The notes under the pieces were generated by a model. That model made no database searches, had not been told where the DNA came from, and worked only from the letters and a program-made list of their open reading frames with translations. Shown in pieces: positions 733 to 10,487 of a DNA stretch of 64,000 nt. Position numbers and translations under genes: made by a program. This DNA comes from an uncultured Acidobacteriota bacterium (GTDB lineage: Bacteria > Acidobacteriota > Vicinamibacteria > Vicinamibacterales > JAKQTR01). Positions within the stretch are counted from its first letter, which is position 1. Each line of letters begins with the position of its first letter. Where the stretch lies: the NCBI GenBank assembly GCA_963834645.1, contig CAWICP010000018.1, positions 2,534-66,533 of the forward strand, given 5' to 3'.

Positions 733-1575
733 CTACTGCCCCGCCGCCGTCTTCCACGACCCGTACATCGGGTTCGGCAGCGCGATCCACTTCACGCCCC
801 ACATCGCTGCGTGCGCGTCGAGCAACGCCCGCCTTTCGGCCAGCGTTCCCCGGGCGCCCGCCACGAAGTCGCCGAAGTCGTCGCCGATGAGCAGCAGGAT
901 GCGGAAGTCCTGCGCCACGCGGCTGCGCCGCGACGACTTCTCGGAGGCCGCCCATTCGGGCCGCTCGGCGCGCGTGAGCACCGTGTCGCGGCCGGGGTCC
1001 AGCGGGAACCCGTACTTCGCCAGGTTGTCGCGCGTGGCCTGCTCGAGCGCGCGGTCCCGGTTCGTCACGTAGAACACCGCGACGCCCTTCGCCGCCGCGG
1101 CGCGCGTGAACTCGAGCGCGCCCGGAATCGGCGCGGCCTTCCGCTCGCTGCACCACTCGGCCCACCGCGCCTCGCTGTAGACGGTCCCCTCACGGATGTT
1201 GCGCTCTTCGCTCTCGCTGTTGTCGAGCACGGTTTCGTCGACATCCAGAATCACGGCCGGCGGCTTCGACGCGAAGTCGCCCGTCTGCTCGAGCGCCGCG
1301 GTCCATGTCCTGTCCGCCAGCGCCCGGTCCAGCATCAGCGCGGCGAGGCGGTACGCCTGCAGGGCCGTCGCCCGGTATTCCACCGACGTGCGGAACCAGA
1401 CGAGCGAGTCGGGAAGCGGGATCTTCGCGGGCGTGGCGGCGGCTGGCGGGGCGGCCGGCGCGGCCGCGGGCGGCGCCGTGCGGCTGGCGCAGGCGGCCGA
1501 GGCGAGAGGGCCAGTGCGACAGGACGGCGGACAAGGAGGCGCGTGCGTCATGCCGCCATCGTGCCACAGGCGCAC
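733..1575 (-). CDS. 5'-nucleotidase, lipoprotein e(P4) family / class B acid phosphatase (HAD-IIIB)
   Basis: Intact 280-aa ORF. HAD motifs VILDVDETVLDNS, VFYVTNR and LLIGDDFGDF are present. N-terminal lipobox-like LASAAC; the alternative start MTHAPP is at 1551. Confidence 0.8.
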   Translation of the reverse strand: MRLWHDGGMTHAPPCPPSCRTGPLASAACASRTAPPAAAPAAPPAAATPAKIPLPDSLVWFRTSVEYRATALQAYRLAALMLDRALADRTWTAALEQTGDFASKPPAVILDVDETVLDNSESEERNIREGTVYSEARWAEWCSERKAAPIPGALEFTRAAAAKGVAVFYVTNRDRALEQATRDNLAKYGFPLDPGRDTVLTRAERPEWAASEKSSRRSRVAQDFRILLLIGDDFGDFVAGARGTLAERRALLDAHAAMWGVKWIALPNPMYGSWKTAAGQ

Positions 1576-1761
1576 CGTCGCGACTACGTGCGGATGCCGC
1601 GGCGGACGAGCCGTACGAGCAGGCCGCGCACGATGGCTGGAACCACGAGCGGGCGAGGGTCCCGGCGCGCGTAGCGGTCGAGCGGAAGCGCCTCGCGGAA
1701 GCCGTCGGACGAGGAGGTCCCGGCCTGCGAGGGCCGACGCGAGCCGCGCGCGGCGCTCCGT

Positions 1762-2904
1762 CTACAGCTTCGCGCCGATCAGGCGCCGGCCGGCCGCGGC
1801 CGCCAGCGCCAGCGTGCCGAAGCGCTCGCGGTACATCCGGGCGTAGAGCCGCCCCGTGTCCTTCGGCGGGACCCGTGCGCCGGGATTCGCCGCGAGCCGC
1901 ACGGCACCCGTCGCGCACGTCGTGACGCAGAGGCCGCACCCGATGCAGCGCTCCATCTTCACGGCCGCCGGGCCCGCGTCGCAGGCGATGGCCTCCATCT
2001 GGCAGCGCGTCTCGCACACCAGGCAGCTGTTGCACAGGCCGGCGTCCACCTCGGCGTGGAAGTTGGTGGCGAAAAACGACGCGGGGTTCGGGAGCTTCTT
2101 CGCCGTGGTCAGCACGCCGCAACAGCAGCCGCAGCAGCAGCAGATAAACAGCGGGTCCTGCGTGTTCTGGGGCTGGACCACCAGGCCCTCGCCATCGGCG
2201 CGCGCGAGGAACTCGAGCGTCTCGTCCCTGCTGATGAACCGCGCGGGGCCGCGGGCGACCATCGACTCCGCCGCCATGCCTATCGTCAGGCAGTGCTCGC
2301 GATCGGCCGTCTGACGGCAGGGTTCGCCGACGAGGTCCTTGCCCTGCTGGCAGATGCAGTTCATCACCGCGAACGGACCCGGCGATGCCTGGACGAGCGC
2401 CCGGATGTCGTCGTAGCGGCCCACGGCCCGCTCGAAGGGGATCGACTCGTTGACGGGCACGGTCCGCAGCTGCGGCGAGCGGTCCGAGTGGAACGCGGCG
2501 CCGAAGGCCTCGTCGGCGTAGCGGTCCACGTCGCGCTGCAGGTCGGCGGTGAGGCGGTTGACCTGCGCCTCGTAGAAGCCCACGACAAACGGCGACTTGC
2601 CGTACATCACCCCGCGGCGCGTCGGCACGCGCTGGATCAGCCCGCGCTCGGACATCCCGTCGAGGGCCGCGGAAAGCGCCGCTCGCGCCATCGTCTTCCC
2701 CGCGCGGCGATGAATCGTGGCGATCGATTCCGGGATCGCGCTCAGGCACAGCGCCAGGCGGGCGTCCTCCGGCGAGAACAGGCGCCTGAGGATGCTGAGT
2801 TCGACGCCGGACTCGGTGGCCGGAAACGGCACCGGCATCCGGTCGAGGTGCTGCTGCAGCGACCGGTAGAGTTCGTCGTCCGGGGCGAGGGCTGGCGCGG
2901 GCAT
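1762..2904 (-). CDS. 4Fe-4S dicluster domain protein with poly-cysteine motif
   Basis: ORF 1762..2988; the likely start is MPAPALAPDDELY at 2904. Two ferredoxin-type motifs (CNSCLVCETRC and CIGCGLCVTTC) plus FICCCCGCCCGVL and NCICQQG. Confidence 0.7.
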   Translation of the reverse strand: MPAPALAPDDELYRSLQQHLDRMPVPFPATESGVELSILRRLFSPEDARLALCLSAIPESIATIHRRAGKTMARAALSAALDGMSERGLIQRVPTRRGVMYGKSPFVVGFYEAQVNRLTADLQRDVDRYADEAFGAAFHSDRSPQLRTVPVNESIPFERAVGRYDDIRALVQASPGPFAVMNCICQQGKDLVGEPCRQTADREHCLTIGMAAESMVARGPARFISRDETLEFLARADGEGLVVQPQNTQDPLFICCCCGCCCGVLTTAKKLPNPASFFATNFHAEVDAGLCNSCLVCETRCQMEAIACDAGPAAVKMERCIGCGLCVTTCATGAVRLAANPGARVPPKDTGRLYARMYRERFGTLALAAAAGRRLIGAKL

Positions 2905-2972
2905 GAGGGACCTCTCTCCCGCCATTCTAATGCGCTCCCGGCCGGCGGACGGCACCGAACCGGCCCGCGGCC

Positions 2973-3947
2973 CTACAGGGGCAGCCACGTGCCGAGCCCG
3001 CGGGCGCGGGCGCGTCGGTACACTTCCGGCGCCACGGCCATGTCGTCGAGCGCCAGGCCGAGGTTCATGGCCATCGTCCGTTCGTCCGCGCGCTCGCGGC
3101 CCGGCTTGCGGCCGCCGACCAGCTCGCCGAGGTCGGCATACGGATCCGGCGTCTTCTGGAAGTAGCCGACGCGGCGGTAGTACTGGAACTGCGCGTGATC
3201 GTCGGTGGCGATCTTGTCGATGTGCGCGAGCGCCTCCTCCGTCCAGTAGCTGTCGAAGTCGACCGCCGACGCGAAGGCGCCGGGCTTCAGCCAGTCTCCC
3301 GCAATCGTCGGAGCCGGGTGCTTCAGGATCGGCCCCGACGTCACCACGACGTCGCTCGCGGCAACCGCCTCACGCACCTCCCGGACGCCGACAATCTCGA
3401 TGTCGAGCGCGGCGGACATCTCGGCCACGAACCGCCGCTGGACCGCCGCATCGGTGTCGAAGGCATAGGCTCTCGTCAGCGGAAGCACCTCGGCAAGCGC
3501 CAGCAGGTTGGTCCGGCCCTGGAAGCCGCACGCGATGATGCCCGCCGTCGCGCTCTCGCGGCGGGCGAGGTGCTTCGCGGCGACGGCCGTCGCCGCGCCC
3601 GTCCGGTATCCGGTGATCCACGTGCAGTCCATGACGGCGTACGGCACGCACGTCTGCACGTCGTTGAGGATGATCAGCCCCGAGATGTACGGCAGGCCGC
3701 GCGGGGGGTTCGCCGGGTTCCCGCCGACCCACTTCACGCCCGCCGATTGCATCCCGGCGATGTACGCCGGCATGGCGTGGATGAAGGCGTCCGGCTGCGG
3801 GTGGATGCCCGGCTTGGGCGGCATCTCGACGCGGCCGGCGGCCTTCTCGCGAAACCCCTCCTCGACCAGCGCGATGACGGCGGCCATGTCGACGCCGGCG
3901 GCCTCGACGTCCGCACGCGACAGATACAGCAATTCGCCTTGCGTCAT
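2973..3947 (-). CDS. Ornithine cyclodeaminase / mu-crystallin family protein
   Basis: Intact ORF; likely start MTQGELLYLSRADV at 3947. Typical family stretches GLIILNDVQTCVPYAVMDCTWITGYRTGAATAVAAKHLAR and IIACGFQGR (Rossmann). Confidence 0.85.
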   Translation of the reverse strand: MTQGELLYLSRADVEAAGVDMAAVIALVEEGFREKAAGRVEMPPKPGIHPQPDAFIHAMPAYIAGMQSAGVKWVGGNPANPPRGLPYISGLIILNDVQTCVPYAVMDCTWITGYRTGAATAVAAKHLARRESATAGIIACGFQGRTNLLALAEVLPLTRAYAFDTDAAVQRRFVAEMSAALDIEIVGVREVREAVAASDVVVTSGPILKHPAPTIAGDWLKPGAFASAVDFDSYWTEEALAHIDKIATDDHAQFQYYRRVGYFQKTPDPYADLGELVGGRKPGRERADERTMAMNLGLALDDMAVAPEVYRRARARGLGTWLPL

Positions 3948-3994
3948 CGGTCTCCCGACCGCGACTGCGTCACCCGCTTCGCCAGCGGGACGGG

Positions 3995-5114
3995 CTACAT
4001 GCCTTCGCCCGTCGTGCACTCCGTCACGAACGTCCTCTTACGCTTGTTCGGGTTCTCGATGATCTCGAAGAACTCGTTCAGGTACTTCTCGGTCGACCTG
4101 ATGTGCCCGGCTTCGAGCCCCAGGGCGGCGAGCGTCGCCGGCAGCGCGAGCAGTTCCGCCTTCTTCTCCAGGAACGGTGTGAGCGCCTGCTCCACGTCCG
4201 CCTCCGTCTTGCACGGCCCGCGCCAGCGCCGCTCCCTCACCGAGCTCAGGTTGAGGTCCTTGAACGGGACCGCGTAGTGCGTGTTGACGAGGCCGGAGTA
4301 GTCGAAGTCGTACGGCACGGTGAGGCGGACGCCCTTGGCGTCATCGATCATGATCACGTTGTGCAGCGCGAGGATCGAGTAGTCCGTGTTGGCGATCATG
4401 TACTGGAACAGCGACATGAACATCAACTGGTCCTGATCGACGTACCTGAACATCTGCCGGGGCACCGACAGCTCGCGCGCGTGCATCCGCTTCGCCAGGT
4501 CGTCGATGTCCTCGAAGAACAGGCCGAGCCGCGTGTCGGGCTTCTTGCCGGGCTGGCTGTCGGCGTAGGTCACGTTCGCGAGGCGCACGCGCAGGGAGTG
4601 TGGAGTCAGCAGGTTGTGCAGGCGGTTCGCCAGGTACTCCTTGAGCGTGTACTGCAGGTAGATGCCTTCGCTCTGGCAGTGCACGCCGAGCTTGAGGTTG
4701 CCGTGCCCCTCGAAGACGCGTGCCCTTCGTCCCGTCCTTCGGGAGTTCGAGGCGCAACGGCGCGAACTCGCAGACACGCGGCTTGCGGCGGGAGTGCCCG
4801 CGCGTCCGAAGCTGCATCGGAACGGGCGTGCCCGCCGTGCCGTCCTTCACGATCGTCAGGGTGCCGGGGTAGAGCTTCTTGCTGTCGACGTCCCGGTCGC
4901 GCTGGACCGCCTTCCAGTCGGCGGTGAGGGTGATCTCGATGGGCTCCTGGCTCGCGAAGAGCGGAAGCGCCTCGGCCTCGGCCTTCCGCTTCTGGAGCGT
5001 CGCCTCGTCGGGCGGCCACGGCTTCGGGGGCTTGGCCTGCTTCTCGGCCGCCGCGGCGGCCGGCTTCTGCGCCTGCGGACCCACGGCGGCCGTCTCGGCG
5101 CCCGCCAGCAGGGC
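3995..5114 (-). CDS. CotH-like (atypical-kinase-like) secreted protein, tandem unit B; no start codon of its own, one frame break near ~4750
   Basis: GPQAQKPAAAAAEKQAKPPKPWPPDEATLQKRKAEAEALPLFASQEPIEITLTADWKAVQRDRDVD...CEFAPLRLELPKDGTKGT continues in another frame as VFEGHGNLKLGVHCQSEGIYLQYTLKEYLANRL...LFQYMIANTDYSILALHNVIMIDDAKGVRLTVPYDFDYSGLV. The N-x-D...HN...P-Y-D-F-D pattern resembles CotH/HipA-type catalytic motifs. Stop at 3995. Confidence 0.5.
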
Positions 5115-5904
5115 GTGCCGATCATGTACTGGAACAGCGACATCAGGAGGAGCGACGGCTGATCGAGGATCCTGAAGGCCAGGCCGCTGCACGCGCCTGC
5201 TCGTGCGCCTCCATGCGCTTCGCCAGGTCGTCCGACGTCCTCGAAGAAGATCCCGAGCTTCGTGAACGGCGCCTTGCCGCGCGTCGGAGTCGACGTAGGT
5301 GACGTTCAGCGAGGCGCGACGCGAAGCGAGCGCGGCGTGAGCACGCTGGAAGATGCGGTTCGCGAGGTGCTCCTTGAGCGTGTACTGCTGGTAGACGTGC
5401 CCTGGCTCTGGCAGTGCGTGCCGAGCTTCACGGCGCGCTGGCCCTCGAAGATCGTGCCCTCGACGTCGGCCTTCTGGAACTCGAGCCGCAGCGGCGCGAA
5501 CTCGCAGAGCCGCGGGTTGCGCCGGACGTTCCCGCGCGTCCGAAGCTGGATCGGAATCGCCGGCCCGGCGACGCCGTCCGTCGCGATCGCGAGCGTGCCG
5601 GGGTACAGGGTCTTGCTCGTCGACGTTCCGGTCGCTCTGCACCTTCTTGAAGTCGGCGGTGATCGTCACGTCGATGGGATCGAAGCTCGCGAAGAGCGGC
5701 AGCTCCTCGGCCTCGGCGCTGCCGCTTGCGGAGCGTCGTCCGCGTCGGGCGGCCAGGGCTTCGGGGGCCTTGACCTGCTGCTCGGCCGCCGCGGCGGCCG
5801 GCTTCTGGGCCTGCGGGCCGGCTGGGCGCGGCCGTGTCCGGCGCCAGCCAGCACGGCGGCCAGCACAACCGCCAGAGCGAGCGCCGGAAGAATCGAGTCA
5901 GCAT
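5115..5904 (-). pseudogene. CotH-like tandem unit A: signal peptide plus the N-terminal two thirds only, multiply frame-broken, ending abruptly after LFQYMIG
   Basis: GGAGG-N4-ATG at 5904 (MLTRFF). A signal-like ALALAVVLAAVLAGA lies in a second frame. Then GPQAQKPAAAAAEQQVKAP...AEAEELPLFASFDPIDVTITADFKKVQSDRNVDEQD...VYQQYTLKEHLANRIFQ...LNVTYVDS...LLMSLFQYMIG. All of this parallels unit B. Confidence 0.45.
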
Positions 5905-5918
5905 GGCGCCTCCTCGGG

Positions 5919-6699
5919 TCAGGAGCGCGGATCGCATGTGCAGCACGCGGGCTCGTGGCTACGCCTCCGCGCGTCCTCGCGCGTCGGCGTCAACGGCGCG
6001 TAATCGAGCGCGCCCAGCCCAATCCGGTACTTCGACACCGGGCTCGGCGCCAGCTTGAACGTCTCCACCAGCTGCCTGAACAGCGCCGGCACCTCGACGC
6101 GGTACTTGAGCTCGACGATGCACTGGCCTTCGATGAGGGGAAAACCCACGCCCGGGATGAACGCCCGGTCGGGCATCGGCAGCACCCGCAGGTTGGTGTC
6201 GATGGTCATCCGCATCGGTGCCCGCGCTCGCCACGCCCACGCGCGCCGTCCGGTCGTACGACATCTGGATGAGCGGGTTCAGACGGCGCAGCAGCACGCG
6301 CCGATGGAACCAGTAGCCCGGCCACGAGGCGACGGGCATCGGCCCCGCCAGGTGCTCCATCTCGGCCATCGGGACCGTCGTCCGCCGCTTGGCCAGCAGC
6401 CGGCTCGTCCTGAACTTGCGCTCGAGGAAGACGATGTCCGACTCGCCGTAGCGGCGGATGCGGAACTTGCTCCGCCCGTACGAGCCGTGGCGGTGATAGA
6501 CGTCGAAGCCCGGCGTCTCGAAGTAGAGGCTCGTCGTGGTGTATTCGTCGCCGTGGGCGCCGGCGCCGAAGTGGTCGCGGGCGAGGTGGGCGCGCGCCCA
6601 CTCGCGCAGCGCCGGGGCCTGCGCCTCGTCGACGAGGAACTTCAGCTCGCGGGCGAAGTCGCGCGTCTCGCGGGAATCGACGAGGGGGGCATTCGACAC
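5919..6699 (-). CDS. VTC-domain (polyphosphate-polymerase-like, triphosphate tunnel) protein; one frame break near ~6220
   Basis: MSNAPLVDSRETRDFARELKFLVDEAQAPALREWARAHL...YTTTSLYFETPGFDVYHRHGSYGRSKFRIRRYG...VFLERKFR, then in a second frame MRMTIDTNLRVLPMPD...CIVELKYRVEVPALFRQLVETFKLAPSPVSKYRIGL. Confidence 0.75.
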
Positions 6700-6706
6700 C
6701 TGCGCG

Positions 6707-7396
6707 TCACTCCTCGAACACGGGACAGCGTTCGACGCGCACGCTCTGCACGCCGTCGAGCCGGTTGAGCGCCCGCACGAGCTGCTCGGGCGTGCCCGGC
6801 TCCCGCAGCTTCGCCTCGTAGGCCACGTCGATCGACACGCCGTGCTTGGCCGTCTCGATCGACTGCAGCCGCCGGTGCGAGAAATACACGTCCAGCGTGC
6901 CGCCGAGCAGCGTCTCGGCGTCGTGGCCGAGGCCGATGCGGATCCGGACGAGCAGCGGCAACCGGCCGGTGATGTAGTCGCCGGTGGCCGGCGGCTTCAT
7001 CCCGATGGCCACCACCGCCACCAGCGCCAGGCCGATGACGGCCACCAGCGGCGCGCGGGCGCCCACCGCCATCCCGACCACCACCGACAGCATCACGAAC
7101 GCCGTGTCCTGGGTGTCGCGGACCACCGTCCGGAACCGCACGATCGCCAGCGCCCCGACCAGGCTGAAGGCGAGGGCGACGTTGTCGCCGATGACCTGCG
7201 TCACCATGGCGATGAGCACGGCGAGCAGCACCAGCGTCGGGGGGAATGTCGGCGTGATGTCCACTTCGTGGCGCGACCGCCGGTAGACCAGCGCCACCAG
7301 GCCGCCGAACACCGCGGCCAGACACAGGCGGATCAGGATCTCGATCGCCGGGAGCTCGGCCCCGTCAACGAACGGCCCTTTGAAGGCTTCAAGCAT
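6707..7396 (-). CDS. DUF4956 domain membrane protein
   Basis: Intact 229-aa ORF. It shows IRLCLAAVFGGLVALVYR, FSLVGALAIVRFRTVVRDTQDTAFVMLSVVVGMAVG and a C-terminal soluble domain. The stop lies 8 nt before the VTC gene start. Confidence 0.8.
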   Translation of the reverse strand: MLEAFKGPFVDGAELPAIEILIRLCLAAVFGGLVALVYRRSRHEVDITPTFPPTLVLLAVLIAMVTQVIGDNVALAFSLVGALAIVRFRTVVRDTQDTAFVMLSVVVGMAVGARAPLVAVIGLALVAVVAIGMKPPATGDYITGRLPLLVRIRIGLGHDAETLLGGTLDVYFSHRRLQSIETAKHGVSIDVAYEAKLREPGTPEQLVRALNRLDGVQSVRVERCPVFEE

Positions 7397-7616
7397 GGAG
7401 TGTCAGCCATCTTACAGCAATCCGCGGTCCGGAGCCTGCCGAACCGTCCCGGCCGCCGGCCGGCGCCGTCGCGGACATCACCCGGGTTAGACGATCGAAC
7501 CCGGACGCCTGTTCGCCGTCGCGCTCCCGCAGGCGGCCTCATTCCGGCGGATCCCTGCTACACTTCGGCCCTGGCGGCAGGCCCCCGGTCGGAAATCCCA
7601 TCAAGGAGACTGCAGA

Positions 7617-8605
7617 ATGGCACCCCATGACGAGTTCGGCCTCACGCGGCGCGGGTTTTTTCAGGGCGTCATCGGCACGGCGGTGGCCGCCACGCTCGCG
7701 TCCCGGAGCGCGGCGGCCGACACGACCAGAGCCAAAGTCGTCAGGGTGGAGTCGCCCGACGTGTGGAAAGGCGACGCACGCCGGCCCGGAGGTCGTCGCG
7801 GCGATGGTGAACGCGGGCCTCATGTCGTTCACGGGCCAGGCGAAGGCCGACGCGGCCTGGCGGCAGTTCATGAAGCCCGGCATGCGCGTCGGCTTCAAGC
7901 TGAACCTGCTCGGCCGCCCGCTGGTCATCACGGCCCGCGAGGTGACCGACGCGGCCGTCGCGGGCGCGCTGGCCGCGGGCGTGAAGCCCGGCGACATCAC
8001 GGTGTGGGACCGCAAGCCCGAGCACTTCGGGCCGGACTCCTACGAGGCCGGCACAGGCCGCCACGGCGAGCGCGTCAAGCAGGGATCGAACTGGCACGAT
8101 TCGATGTTCGCCGAGACCAGCGGCGGGCCGGCGCCCATCGAGCGCATCGCCGTCGACGAGACCGACATCACCATCAACCTGCCGGTCATCAAGGACCACG
8201 GCGGCTGCCGGCGTCACCGGCGCCCTCAAGAACATCGCGTTCGGGTGCTACCGGAACCACCGCCAGGCCCACAGCGGCAACTGCGACCCGTACATCGCCG
8301 AGACGTACGCGCACTTCATCAAGACCACGAAGGTGCCGCTCGTCATCCTGGACGCCACCGAAGGCTGCTTCGACGGCGGGCCGGCGCCGCAGAACTCGCA
8401 GACGGTGTGGCGCGAGAACGCCATCTACGTCGCCACCGACCCGGTCGCCCTCGACGTCGCGCTCCGCGACGTGATCAACGCGAAACGCCGGCAGGCGGGC
8501 CTGCCGGAGAAGGTGCGCCAGTGCCGCCACATCGAGACGGCCGCGGCCGGCGGGCTCGGCATCGGCGACCCGGCGCGCATCGACATCGTCACCGTGAAGG
8601 TGTAG
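7617..8605 (+). CDS. DUF362 domain protein with Tat signal; frame breaks near ~7770 and ~8200
   Basis: AAGGAG lies 8 nt upstream of the ATG. MAPHDEFGLTRRGFFQGVIGTAVAATLASRSAAA is a twin-arginine signal. Pieces in three successive frames (+1 each): ...FKLNLLGRPLVITAREV...ITINLPVIKDHGG / ...VPLVILDATEGCFDGGPAP...ATDPVALDVA...GIGDPARIDIVTVKV. Confidence 0.7.
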
Positions 8606-8610
8606 CGGAG

Positions 8611-10487
8611 TTGCAGCGATCGACAGGATGTTGCGAATGCGTCGCTGCCGTGCTGTGCCTGGGAACGGCGCTCGCGGCGCAGTCGCCTGCCGCGCGCGAC
8701 CTGCGCCGGACGGCGCTCGCCGGCGCCGCCCCGACCGCGGAGATCATCCGCCTCGACGTCGACGGCGACGGCCGGCCCGACATCCTCGAGCGCTGGTGGA
8801 ACGGCAAGCGCGTGCGGTGGCTGGACGAGAACGGCGATCTGTCGCCCACCGACACCAGGGGCGACCAGGTGGCGGACGTGCTCCAGGTGGACATGAACGG
8901 CGACGGCTGGTACGACGGCGTGACCGACCAGAACGTCAAGTGGGCCGACAACGACGGCGACGGCCGGCCCGACGTCCAGGCCTGGGCCACGCAGCCGCCG
9001 AGCTGGAGCGACGGCAAGTGGAGCACCAGCGAGTCGCACTGGATGCTGTTCCTCGACGTCGAGCAGGACGGCGTCCTCGGGTGGCAGGACTGGCGGACGT
9101 TCAACTTCGGCGACTCGAACTGGGACTACACCGGCACGCACGACTGGCTGCCCGACTACCACGGCGACGCGCTGTTCATGAAGATCCACCGCCCGCCCCA
9201 GGCGCTGCCCGACCCGCGCCTCAACTGGGAGAACCCGTTCGCCTTCTTCGACACCGACGGCGACGGCCTCACCGAGATGGGCATGCGGTGGCTCGACCCG
9301 ATGATGCCGGTTGTCAAGGGCCTGGCCCCGCTCTCAGGCGTGCTGAACGAGGCCTTTCTTACTCTTGATCTCGACAACGACTCGGGCAAGGGCAACGAGA
9401 TCGACTACGACATGTCGCTGCGCGGCTCGGGCGGCCCCGGCGTGCCGTACCAGTCCATGGTGACGGCCTACCCGGCCCTGCGCGGCAACCCGAAGTTCGA
9501 CGCGTGCTTCCAGTGGGGCAACTGGCGGCAGGTCGGCGAACTCAAGTTCATGCCGCACGCGCGCAGCTACGACGCGTTCTTCACGGCGGGCTGGACCTCA
9601 ACCTACCTGGTGTTCGACGAGGACGATGACGACCATCGGTGGGAACGGGTGGAGATGTACTACCCCATGCACGGGTTCGGCGGGCCCGAAGGATATCGAC
9701 ATCTGGTCGGTGAAGAAGTGGCGGCAGGGCAACTACGCGAACCTGAACATGGCCGCCGAAGGCGAGAAGCCCGGCCTCGGCGGGCACCCGCAGGCCGACT
9801 CGCTCGGCGACCGCGGCGAGTTCGATCGCGACAACTCGGGCGGCGGCAGGCTCTACGTCGGCGTCTTCGATCGCAAGCTGCACCTGGCCGGCGCGGAGTG
9901 GGGCGCATGGATCGTCGACAAGCACGCCGAGTTCCACGGCGGCTGGAAGGCGCCGTCCCCGCGCCCGCTCGCCACGAAGGTCGAGGAGGTCGTCCGCTAC
10001 ACCGACGCCGACGGCAACGGGTTCCTCGACACGGTCGAGTTCGACTACGACGGCGATCGCGCGTTCGACTTCACCGTCTCGCTCCTGGACTACAAGACGC
10101 CCGGCGGCGGCGCCCCTGATCAGGCGGCGATCATCGACACGCGGGCGGCGGGCTGGAAGGGCCTGCACGAGGCCTATACGAGCGCGGCGAACCAGTCGTG
10201 GCGGGAAGCGCTCGCCGTCTACCGCGCGGCGTGGAAGCGCGGCCTCACGACGCCCGACATGGACACGCTCGCGAACGCCGCGTCGGTGGCGGAGCGCCAC
10301 GCCAACGCCTACTGGATCAAGGAACTGGCGTTCCGCGCGATCAGGTCGCGGCTCGGCGAGGCGCGGGCGGCCGAGCCGTCGCAGGCCGCCACCCTCGACG
10401 CCCTCGAGAAGGACCTGACGCGGCTGTACCATCCTCGGCCGCTTCGACGAGTACGTGGCGGGGATTGCGCGAGTGCCCGGGGTCTGA
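8611..10487 (+). CDS. Large secreted protein with repeated DxDGDG (FG-GAP/EF-hand-like calcium-binding) motifs; frame breaks near ~9690 and ~10430
   Basis: Signal-like CVAAVLCLGTALAAQ. Motifs DVDGDGRPD, DMNGDGWYD, DNDGDGRPD, DTDGDGLTE, DADGNGFLD and DYDGDRAFD. The tail reads LYHILGRFDEYVAGIARVPGV with TGA at 10485-10487 after a +1 frame step. The start (TTG 8611 or ATG 8628) is uncertain. Confidence 0.55.

Follow-up and report, generated by a model that had tools for sequence, protein, structure and literature searches.

What kind of protein is exported from a locus in which genes for a DUF4956 membrane protein and a VTC-domain protein (triphosphate-tunnel, polyphosphate-polymerase-like) are followed on the same strand by two tandem units of a secreted protein was the question raised by a stretch of DNA from an uncultured Acidobacteriota bacterium of the order Vicinamibacterales (assembly GCA_963834645.1, contig CAWICP010000018.1). 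The window, that is, the whole stretch of 64,000 nucleotides (nt) analyzed here (positions 2,534 to 66,533 of the contig), provides the coordinates given below, and the locus occupies positions 3995 to 7396 of its minus strand. In a preliminary description, the genes had been taken for a divergent member of the CotH/VTC/DUF4956 module of bacteria, an interpretation supported by the analysis reported here. The exported protein represents, with high confidence, a divergent branch of the CotH/protein-kinase-like superfamily, and the locus is probably a lineage-specific version of the module. As proposed, the module would consist of a cytoplasmic VTC protein, a DUF4956 inner-membrane protein and one or two tandem compact exported proteins of the CotH branch. 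The compact protein (~350-390 amino acids (aa), with a signal peptide and four cysteines) would take the place of a CotH recognizable by Pfam.

The protein is best preserved in the second of the tandem units (unit 2; 3995-5115, minus strand), which codes for a nearly full-length compact exported protein. It is the orthologue of copy B (P0002) in the closest public relative, a Vicinamibacterales metagenome-assembled genome (MAG; locus L001) with genes for DUF4956 (229 aa) and VTC (246 aa) and, in tandem, two intact paralogues, copy A (390 aa) and copy B (388 aa). The unit 2 protein shares 91% aa identity with the intact 388-aa proteins P0001-P0005. The repaired protein gave no meaningful match in Pfam (E-value (E) ≤ 10), NCBIfam or the PDB sequences (phmmer/hmmsearch); matches to lactate oxidase and DosC were weak and short and were judged spurious. 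Hundreds of homologues of 383-392 aa were recovered (65-91% identity to the repaired unit 2 protein), none of them annotated and none with a Pfam domain, and no literature on the family was found. Of 1.84 billion cluster representatives (clusters at 50% identity) searched with a profile, 3,704 matched at E ≤ 1e-3. At least 596 family loci were detected in a scan of species-representative genomes, and the 80 that were kept came from Acidobacteriota, Gemmatimonadota, Bacteroidota (Spirosoma, Fibrella, Fibrivirga, Nibrella and Marinifilum) and Proteobacteria. In a 150-genome sample of the phylum the family was present in only two genomes besides the source genome, in both cases at contig ends with no partner genes visible, and this sample is uninformative on linkage. 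One copy is hidden by its public annotation: at L003:9127-10406 the public call is a 401-aa minus-strand open reading frame (ORF) without a Pfam domain, while the plus strand encodes a second family copy (hidden Markov model (HMM) E 6e-111); the public call is probably a shadow ORF.

Among diverse members (P0002 numbering), R121, G122, R125, C131, C162, E217, R225, N258, D260, H267, N268, D285, F286, D287, G290, Y296, R311 and G315 are invariant, and C317 and C382 are nearly so. The Asp, His-Asn and Asp set was invariant in more than 100 family sequences. The predicted active-site block of unit 2 (4292-4411, minus strand) holds LFQYMIANTDYSILALHNVIMIDDAKGVRLTVPYDFDYSG, in which the invariant residues are Asp at 4382-4384 (D260), His-Asn at 4358-4363 (H267 and N268), Asp at 4307-4309 (D285) and Asp at 4301-4303 (D287). 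The family is probably extracytoplasmic, since its members combine an N-terminal hydrophobic, signal-like segment with the four conserved cysteines.

CotH was the sole Pfam family matched by more than one member: 3 of 43 diverse members matched PF08757 weakly (best E 2.5e-4). For a more sensitive comparison, a profile of 139 family sequences was aligned using hhalign with 23 canonical CotH domains collected from Acidobacteriota genomes. The two profiles matched with 97.6% probability in local mode (E 4.6e-12) and 98.8% in global mode (E 8.8e-16), and a second comparison, with 20-23 canonical domains, gave 94.3% (E 9.5e-8). The match spanned ~300-355 columns in the larger alignments and 163-355 over all comparisons. 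Ten column-shuffled controls did not exceed 0.1% and a reversed alignment gave 1.4%. Against one single CotH sequence the probability was only 28.6%; alignments were needed on both sides.

The profile alignment paired RTRG..R of the family with R.RGnS of CotH, PLRLxF with (K/R)LxF, GNTD(x6)HN with n.D(x3)HN and PYDFD.SG with PWD.D..(F/W)G. D260, H267, N268 and D285 thereby fell on the two invariant Asp residues and the His-Asn pair of CotH, which bears out the resemblance to the catalytic and metal-binding motifs of CotH-type kinases that had been noticed at the outset. The Bacillus cereus CotH chain 5JD9 reads QNFDGFVHNYALY...IPWDYDATWG, and its NFDGFVHN...PWDYD parallels the GNTD(x6)HN...PYDFD of the family. 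In B. subtilis CotH, mutation of the catalytic D228 or the metal-binding D251 abolishes activity (PMC7821199). D260 and D285 are equated with these residues as their putative counterparts, because the spacing between D228 and D251 (23 residues) is that of the two Asp residues in 5JD9.

A model of the protein was obtained with AlphaFold from a 67-sequence alignment (predicted local distance difference test (pLDDT) 88; predicted template modelling score (pTM) 0.84); an earlier model built on 21 close homologues was of low quality (pLDDT 62), and the fold matches it gave were set aside. The predicted fold appears kinase-like: the best-ranked PDB matches in Foldseek were almost all kinases, headed by PI3K-delta (E 1e-3), HipT/HipA (probability 0.97-0.99, template modelling score (TM) 0.30-0.40), PINK1 and eEF2K. 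These matches could be taken to mean that the protein has no true relationship to CotH, its motifs being convergent and the protein itself a member of a HipA-/PI3K-like clade or of an unrelated fold, and the same would follow from a search of the PDB sequences with the family profile (hmmsearch), which yielded no CotH match. That explanation is very improbable in light of the profile-profile match, which runs from the N-lobe RxRG and basic-L-x-F motifs to WDxD with E values down to 9e-16 and clean controls, of CotH being the only Pfam family matched by several members, and of gene partners identical to those of canonical CotH (see below). The HipA/HipT and PI3K-type atypical kinases, although the best structural matches to the predicted model, are cytoplasmic, have other partners and reach a TM of only 0.3-0.4, and no sequence-profile relationship between them and the compact family was detected.

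Several observations weigh against the placement of the family in the CotH superfamily and are set out together. The protein of the window has no CotH match in Pfam even at E ≤ 10, nor has P0002, and neither reaches the gathering threshold of PF08757 (23.8 bits); the search of the locus for the three domains thus placed DUF4956 and VTC above threshold and left CotH without a hit. The catalytic loop of the family has three extra residues between the Asp and the His-Asn pair. The near-invariant N-lobe Lys of CotH (K-x3-(R/K)-L-x-F) aligns to the conserved F133 of the family, and with Lys replaced by Phe nucleotide binding may differ or be lost. The best Foldseek E values are only 1e-3 to 3e-2 (TM 0.24-0.40), and the CotH structure 5JD9 falls outside the first 50 matches. 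The second basic position of the Lys motif aligns to R137, and K157 and E175 are alternative candidates for the N-lobe role, by secondary-structure position only.

The compact family is thus outside the Pfam CotH family as currently defined. With the CotH kinases (PF08757; the spore-coat Ser kinase of B. subtilis and B. cereus, 5JD9/5JDA) it shares a remote but significant profile homology, the catalytic Asp, His-Asn and metal-binding Asp in NxD..HN and (W/Y)DxD, the N-lobe RxRG and basic-L-x-F motifs, a predicted fold that appears kinase-like, frequent secretion, and DUF4956, polyphosphate enzymes and Metallophos as gene partners. It differs in remaining below the Pfam threshold, in being shorter by ~100 residues (between the N-lobe and the catalytic loop), in the longer catalytic loop and the Lys to Phe replacement, in its four invariant cysteines, and in having neither a spore context nor FN3, lamin-tail or beta-helix domains.

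The identity of the two partner genes was then established. The DUF4956 gene (6707-7396, minus strand), confirmed at the position first described, is intact and codes for a 229-aa membrane protein in which a soluble C-terminal domain follows an MgtC-like transmembrane region; its product matched PF16316 with E 3.3e-9 (37.2 bits, cut-off 30.6), and the MgtC match was weak. Compared with L001 it shows 97.8% nt and 99% aa identity, zero indels and a ratio of nonsynonymous to synonymous substitution rates (dN/dS) of 0.06. The VTC gene, described earlier as a single protein at 6699-5919, does carry the PF09359 domain, above the Pfam threshold over its whole length when both frames are combined. It is frameshifted in the assembly: the gene lies at 5959-6699 (minus strand), its C-terminal third is read from a different frame (ORF 5919-6215), and the profile is split between positions 2-155 (E 4.5e-18, 66.1 bits) and 161-232 (E 2.8e-5, 24.2 bits). 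Relative to the intact 246-aa gene of L001, there is a 1-nt insertion at ~6216 and four small indels within the last 30 nt; intact 246-aa VTC orthologues are annotated as PF09359. The gap between the DUF4956 and VTC genes is 7 nt, and that between VTC and the first of the tandem units (unit 1) is ~50 nt instead of the 8-15 nt first given.

Gene neighbourhoods were compared in a sample of 88 diverse loci (33-91% identity, with flanks of up to 6-8 kb as far as the contigs reached). DUF4956 was found within 7 kb of the family gene in 29 of the 88 (HMM count; all ten that were checked were confirmed by Pfam), in Acidobacteriota, Gemmatimonadota and Proteobacteria, and in 17 loci it was directly adjacent and co-directional (gaps of <100 nt or overlapping stop-to-stop ORFs). 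Adjacency to DUF4956 is thus conserved in three phyla. A count of 39 loci, from single-linkage clustering of stop-to-stop ORFs, was inflated by shadow ORFs in the high-GC DNA and was discarded. The order DUF4956-VTC-family gene recurs in three independent Vicinamibacterales contigs (L001, L002 and L003), and the arrangement in the window is therefore not due to chance; VTC-DUF4956-family is the order in L019, and the trio is also present in L024. The linkage to DUF4956 and VTC expected of such a module is thus conserved in related genomes. The number of family copies varies, with one in L002, two in L003 and the two tandem copies in L001, and tandem copies were found in eight loci.

VTC was confined to five of the 88 loci, all of Vicinamibacterales type and in two gene orders. 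In Gemmatimonadota it is replaced by PPK1, which was present in 14 loci, all from that phylum and often as the next gene (confirmed in L030, L033, L042, L061, L069, L077 and L085). DUF4956 and PPK1 usually occur in one or two copies per genome, and by our own estimate, an uncorrected statistic, chance proximity of either to the family is for this reason well under 1%. In a 14-genome control, VTC and DUF4956 were found in the same three genomes (Bacteroides thetaiotaomicron, Corynebacterium glutamicum and Methanosarcina acetivorans), all three with CotH. The linkage has its counterweights: DUF4956 was missing within 7 kb in 59 of the 88 loci and in all 15 from Bacteroidota, and the number of loci with VTC is small.

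Two architectures of PPK1 were observed in the same sample. In a Gemmatimonadetes MAG (L061:4699-7512), a single uninterrupted frame immediately downstream of the family gene contains both DUF4956 and a complete PPK1, either as a fusion or as two translationally coupled genes. In L030 (4067-7222), L033 (7609-11124), L038 and L043, all Gemmatimonadota, PPK1 has an N-terminal extension of 380-500 aa whose start gives a near-threshold match to CYTH (PF01928; E 1.4e-4, 22.2 bits, cut-off 23.2); the extension would be a tunnel-fold domain of the same superfamily as VTC.

Other genes near family loci were those for Metallophos phosphoesterases (neighbours in 11 of the 88 loci), PLD-like proteins, exo/endo-phosphatases and acid phosphatases, with glycosyltransferase and sugar-nucleotide enzyme genes nearby in L003 and L019. 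The compact family and canonical CotH have the same kinds of gene partners. Two canonical CotH genes were seen elsewhere in the source genome. On contig 7 (L014, 182000-197000) a second phosphate-themed cluster, with minus-strand ORFs at 8606-9877, 7478-8566, 5842-7299 and 4295-7120, comprises a STAS-DUF4956 fusion, a phosphate-selective porin O/P, a CotH of the canonical type (PF08757, E 8e-37) and a Ppx/GppA exopolyphosphatase that bears an HD domain, and contains no VTC gene. On contig 14 (L015, 245000-257000; minus-strand ORFs 5535-6749 and 3979-5613) a gene for a Metallophos (calcineurin-like) phosphoesterase comes immediately after a canonical CotH, a pairing paralleled by the new family in the 11 loci of other organisms.

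The company of phosphoesterases admits another explanation, in which the exported kinase-fold protein would be no kinase but a hydrolase or binding protein belonging to a phosphate-starvation regulon, and DUF4956, the polyphosphate enzymes and the phosphoesterases would adjoin it only as Pho-type phosphorus-economy genes with separate functions. The immediate Metallophos neighbours, the other phosphatase and PLD-like genes, the same-genome CotH with its porin O/P and Ppx/GppA, and the lack of conservation of the CotH ATP-site Lys would all fit. Against it stand the invariance of the Asp, His-Asn and Asp constellation of active kinases and the adjacency of DUF4956, which is often operonic (17 loci) and tighter than a regulon-level association, and phosphate scavenging is considered unlikely.

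The trio itself is known from Gram-positive bacteria. Genes for CotH, a polyphosphate polymerase (VTC) and DUF4956 form a contiguous accessory set at pel loci (10.1101/768473), and VTC genes, small membrane proteins and CotH occur together in NELoc-2 of Clostridium perfringens (PMC2879425). In Streptococcus intermedius grown in 10% artificial sputum medium (ASM), deletion of the DUF4956-like SIR_1592 or of the CotH gene SIR_1594 reduced aggregation by more than 50% (PMC12345266). The locus of the window resembles these systems (SIR_1592-1594; NELoc-2) in combining a cytoplasmic VTC protein, an MgtC-like membrane protein and a secreted CotH-type protein, with the DUF4956 and CotH members as the apparent functional core. 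It differs in its Gram-negative-type acidobacterial host with no pel genes nearby, in a kinase that comes from a separate, unmodelled subfamily and is tandemly duplicated, and in the replacement of VTC by PPK1, or its absence, in relatives from other phyla.

The likeliest function of the module would be phosphorylation of an envelope protein or glycan; the chances that the exported enzyme is an active phosphotransferase on such a substrate are judged to be about even. The exported enzyme and DUF4956 probably form a core pair, which agrees with the S. intermedius knock-outs, and a polyphosphate synthase, VTC or PPK1, would be a frequent and exchangeable third member. Whichever of the two is present may supply polyphosphate that is used or sensed by the pair, a proposal put forward tentatively. 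By likeness to the yeast VTC complex (the Vtc4/Vtc3/Vtc1 polymerase-translocase), which also joins a triphosphate-tunnel VTC catalytic domain to a membrane component, polyphosphate synthesis at the membrane is suggested; the bacterial VTC protein, however, has neither an SPX domain nor a transmembrane domain, and the Vtc transmembrane domains bear no relation to DUF4956; translocation by DUF4956 is hypothetical. A scheme in which polyphosphate is made at the inner membrane, passed across it by DUF4956 and used as phosphoryl donor by the exported kinase-fold enzyme is regarded as a long shot. If it were true, envelope targets would be phosphorylated where there is no ATP, and the loss of the CotH ATP-site Lys would reflect a changed donor. 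The exchange of VTC for PPK1 strengthens the link to polyphosphate and is silent on translocation. A further point counts against the functional proposal: no phenotype was reported for deletion of the S. intermedius VTC gene SIR_1593 (PMC12345266).

A last objection comes from the state of the genes, which are non-functional as assembled: VTC is frameshifted, the first copy of the family gene is truncated and ridden with indels, and the second is startless. The preliminary description had counted two tandem units, both with the N-x-D...N and (W/Y)DFD motifs. Two related stretches are indeed present, ~79% identical in DNA with many 1-nt indels between them, and the motifs occur in unit 2 alone. 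Unit 1 (5116-5904, minus strand) corresponds to the 5' two thirds of a family paralogue. Its signal peptide (MLTRF...) begins at 5904, its frame changes many times, and it ends at LFQYMIG (5116), before the N-x-D...HN and YDFD motifs. Unit 2 opens in the middle of a signal peptide (..LLAGAETAAVGPQ) and runs to the stop at 3995 with one frame change, a 1-nt insertion at ~4717; the first 16 codons are absent, and unit 2 has neither a start codon nor a signal peptide of its own. The junction (5113-5118) is non-homologous and out of frame, passing from codon ~257 of unit 1 to codon 17 of unit 2. By blastn breakpoints, the window is collinear with L001 from 10480 to 5116, up to nt 7548 of L001 (inside copy A), and the alignment resumes at nt 8048 (codon 17 of copy B); ~499 nt of L001 (7549-8047) are thus missing at 5115/5116, where the junction sequence shows only a GGC-type microhomology of 3 nt.

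The damage is unevenly distributed. DUF4956 and VTC are 97-98% identical to their L001 counterparts and unit 2 is 94% identical (one gap), whereas unit 1 has 81.5% identity to copy A with 24 indel positions over 811 aligned nt (20 insertions and 4 deletions), between flanks of 94-98%. The divergent, indel-rich patch is sharply bounded at ~5990 and 5116, and the indel density is ~30/kb in unit 1 compared with ~1/kb in unit 2 and the downstream genes. Paralogues A and B are equally distant from unit 1 (~80%). Of the 178 sites that distinguish the two, unit 1 agrees with A at 84 and with B at 77, and it departs from both at 61 of the 593 sites at which they agree; a third, equally old lineage fits as well as an A/B mosaic. 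The private changes of unit 1 (~10%) are similar in extent to the branches leading to A and B, all family motifs are retained when its translation is corrected for indels, and its dN/dS of 0.53 (0.43 in unit 2) is not clearly relaxed; its substitutions therefore do not resemble neutral decay. They look like those of a third functional paralogue, to judge from the sequence, and only the indels and the truncation resemble damage.

Single-base indels also interrupt, relative to L001, a DUF362 gene and the following gene for a ~620-aa secreted protein (7617-10480; at ~7787, 8206, 9682 and 10433). The studied region has a G+C content of 63-76% per 500-nt window (~70% overall), and the source genome comprises 3.45 Mb in 22 contigs with a completeness score of only 61%. 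Since unrelated neighbours are frameshifted as well and completeness is this low at 22 contigs, an error-prone long-read consensus is indicated: the scattered single-base frameshifts are most likely consensus errors, and frameshift errors seem to affect the assembly in general, a possible reason for its low completeness. The junction between the two copies may be a real 0.5-kb deletion or a local misassembly, and together with the indel cluster of unit 1 it is probably an assembly artefact. Real decay, in which both kinase copies were fused and lost their function through a 0.5-kb deletion and later frameshifts in VTC and copy 1 left a true pseudogene cluster, is considered less likely. It would account for the concentration of indels in unit 1 and for a junction that resembles an illegitimate deletion, and the variable region downstream also lacks 5.1 kb found in L002. 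It sits poorly with the frameshifts in the DUF362 and 620-aa protein genes, with contig number and completeness typical of an error-prone long-read MAG, with a unit 1 branch no longer than those of the intact A and B and a dN/dS near that of unit 2, and with an insertion-to-deletion ratio (20:4) unusual among bacterial pseudogenes.

Downstream of the module, on the same strand, the identities given earlier were confirmed: an ornithine cyclodeaminase (2973-4019), a poly-Cys Fer4 protein (1762-2988) and an acid phosphatase (733-1575), now assigned to class B. They are found together in three Vicinamibacterales genomes (window 733-4019; L002 14241-17167; L003 13921-16951, in a different order). 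The long co-directional array noted here at the outset is not a functional unit. In L002, 5 kb with a TonB-dependent receptor and other genes lie between the family gene and the cyclodeaminase, and in L003 reverse-strand glycosyltransferase genes do; the three genes are accordingly not part of the module. Because they are separated from it in both relatives, the nearby acid phosphatase lends weak support to the phosphate theme for which it had been invoked. Comparison of window 3937-3995 with L002 9172-14250 showed that ~5.1 kb (a TonB-dependent receptor, a beta-helix protein and a 174-aa ORF) are missing here, and it is this difference in a variable region that brings the cyclodeaminase group next to the module; a TonB-dependent receptor is also present at the corresponding position in L001.

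The trio as a gene neighbourhood is already in print; what is new is that a very large family without annotation is assigned to the CotH superfamily, its predicted catalytic residues being named, and that VTC and PPK1 are exchanged around DUF4956. The CotH/VTC/DUF4956 trio is common in bacteria and genetically tied to biofilm polysaccharide phenotypes. The named residues, as predicted, make mutagenesis straightforward, and the cultured carriers Spirosoma, Fibrella and Fibrivirga make the system testable. The non-orthologous swap of VTC and PPK1 around a constant DUF4956 provides independent genomic evidence for a polyphosphate role of the module, and suggests that DUF4956 and the kinase-like protein are its core pair, matching the only published knock-outs.

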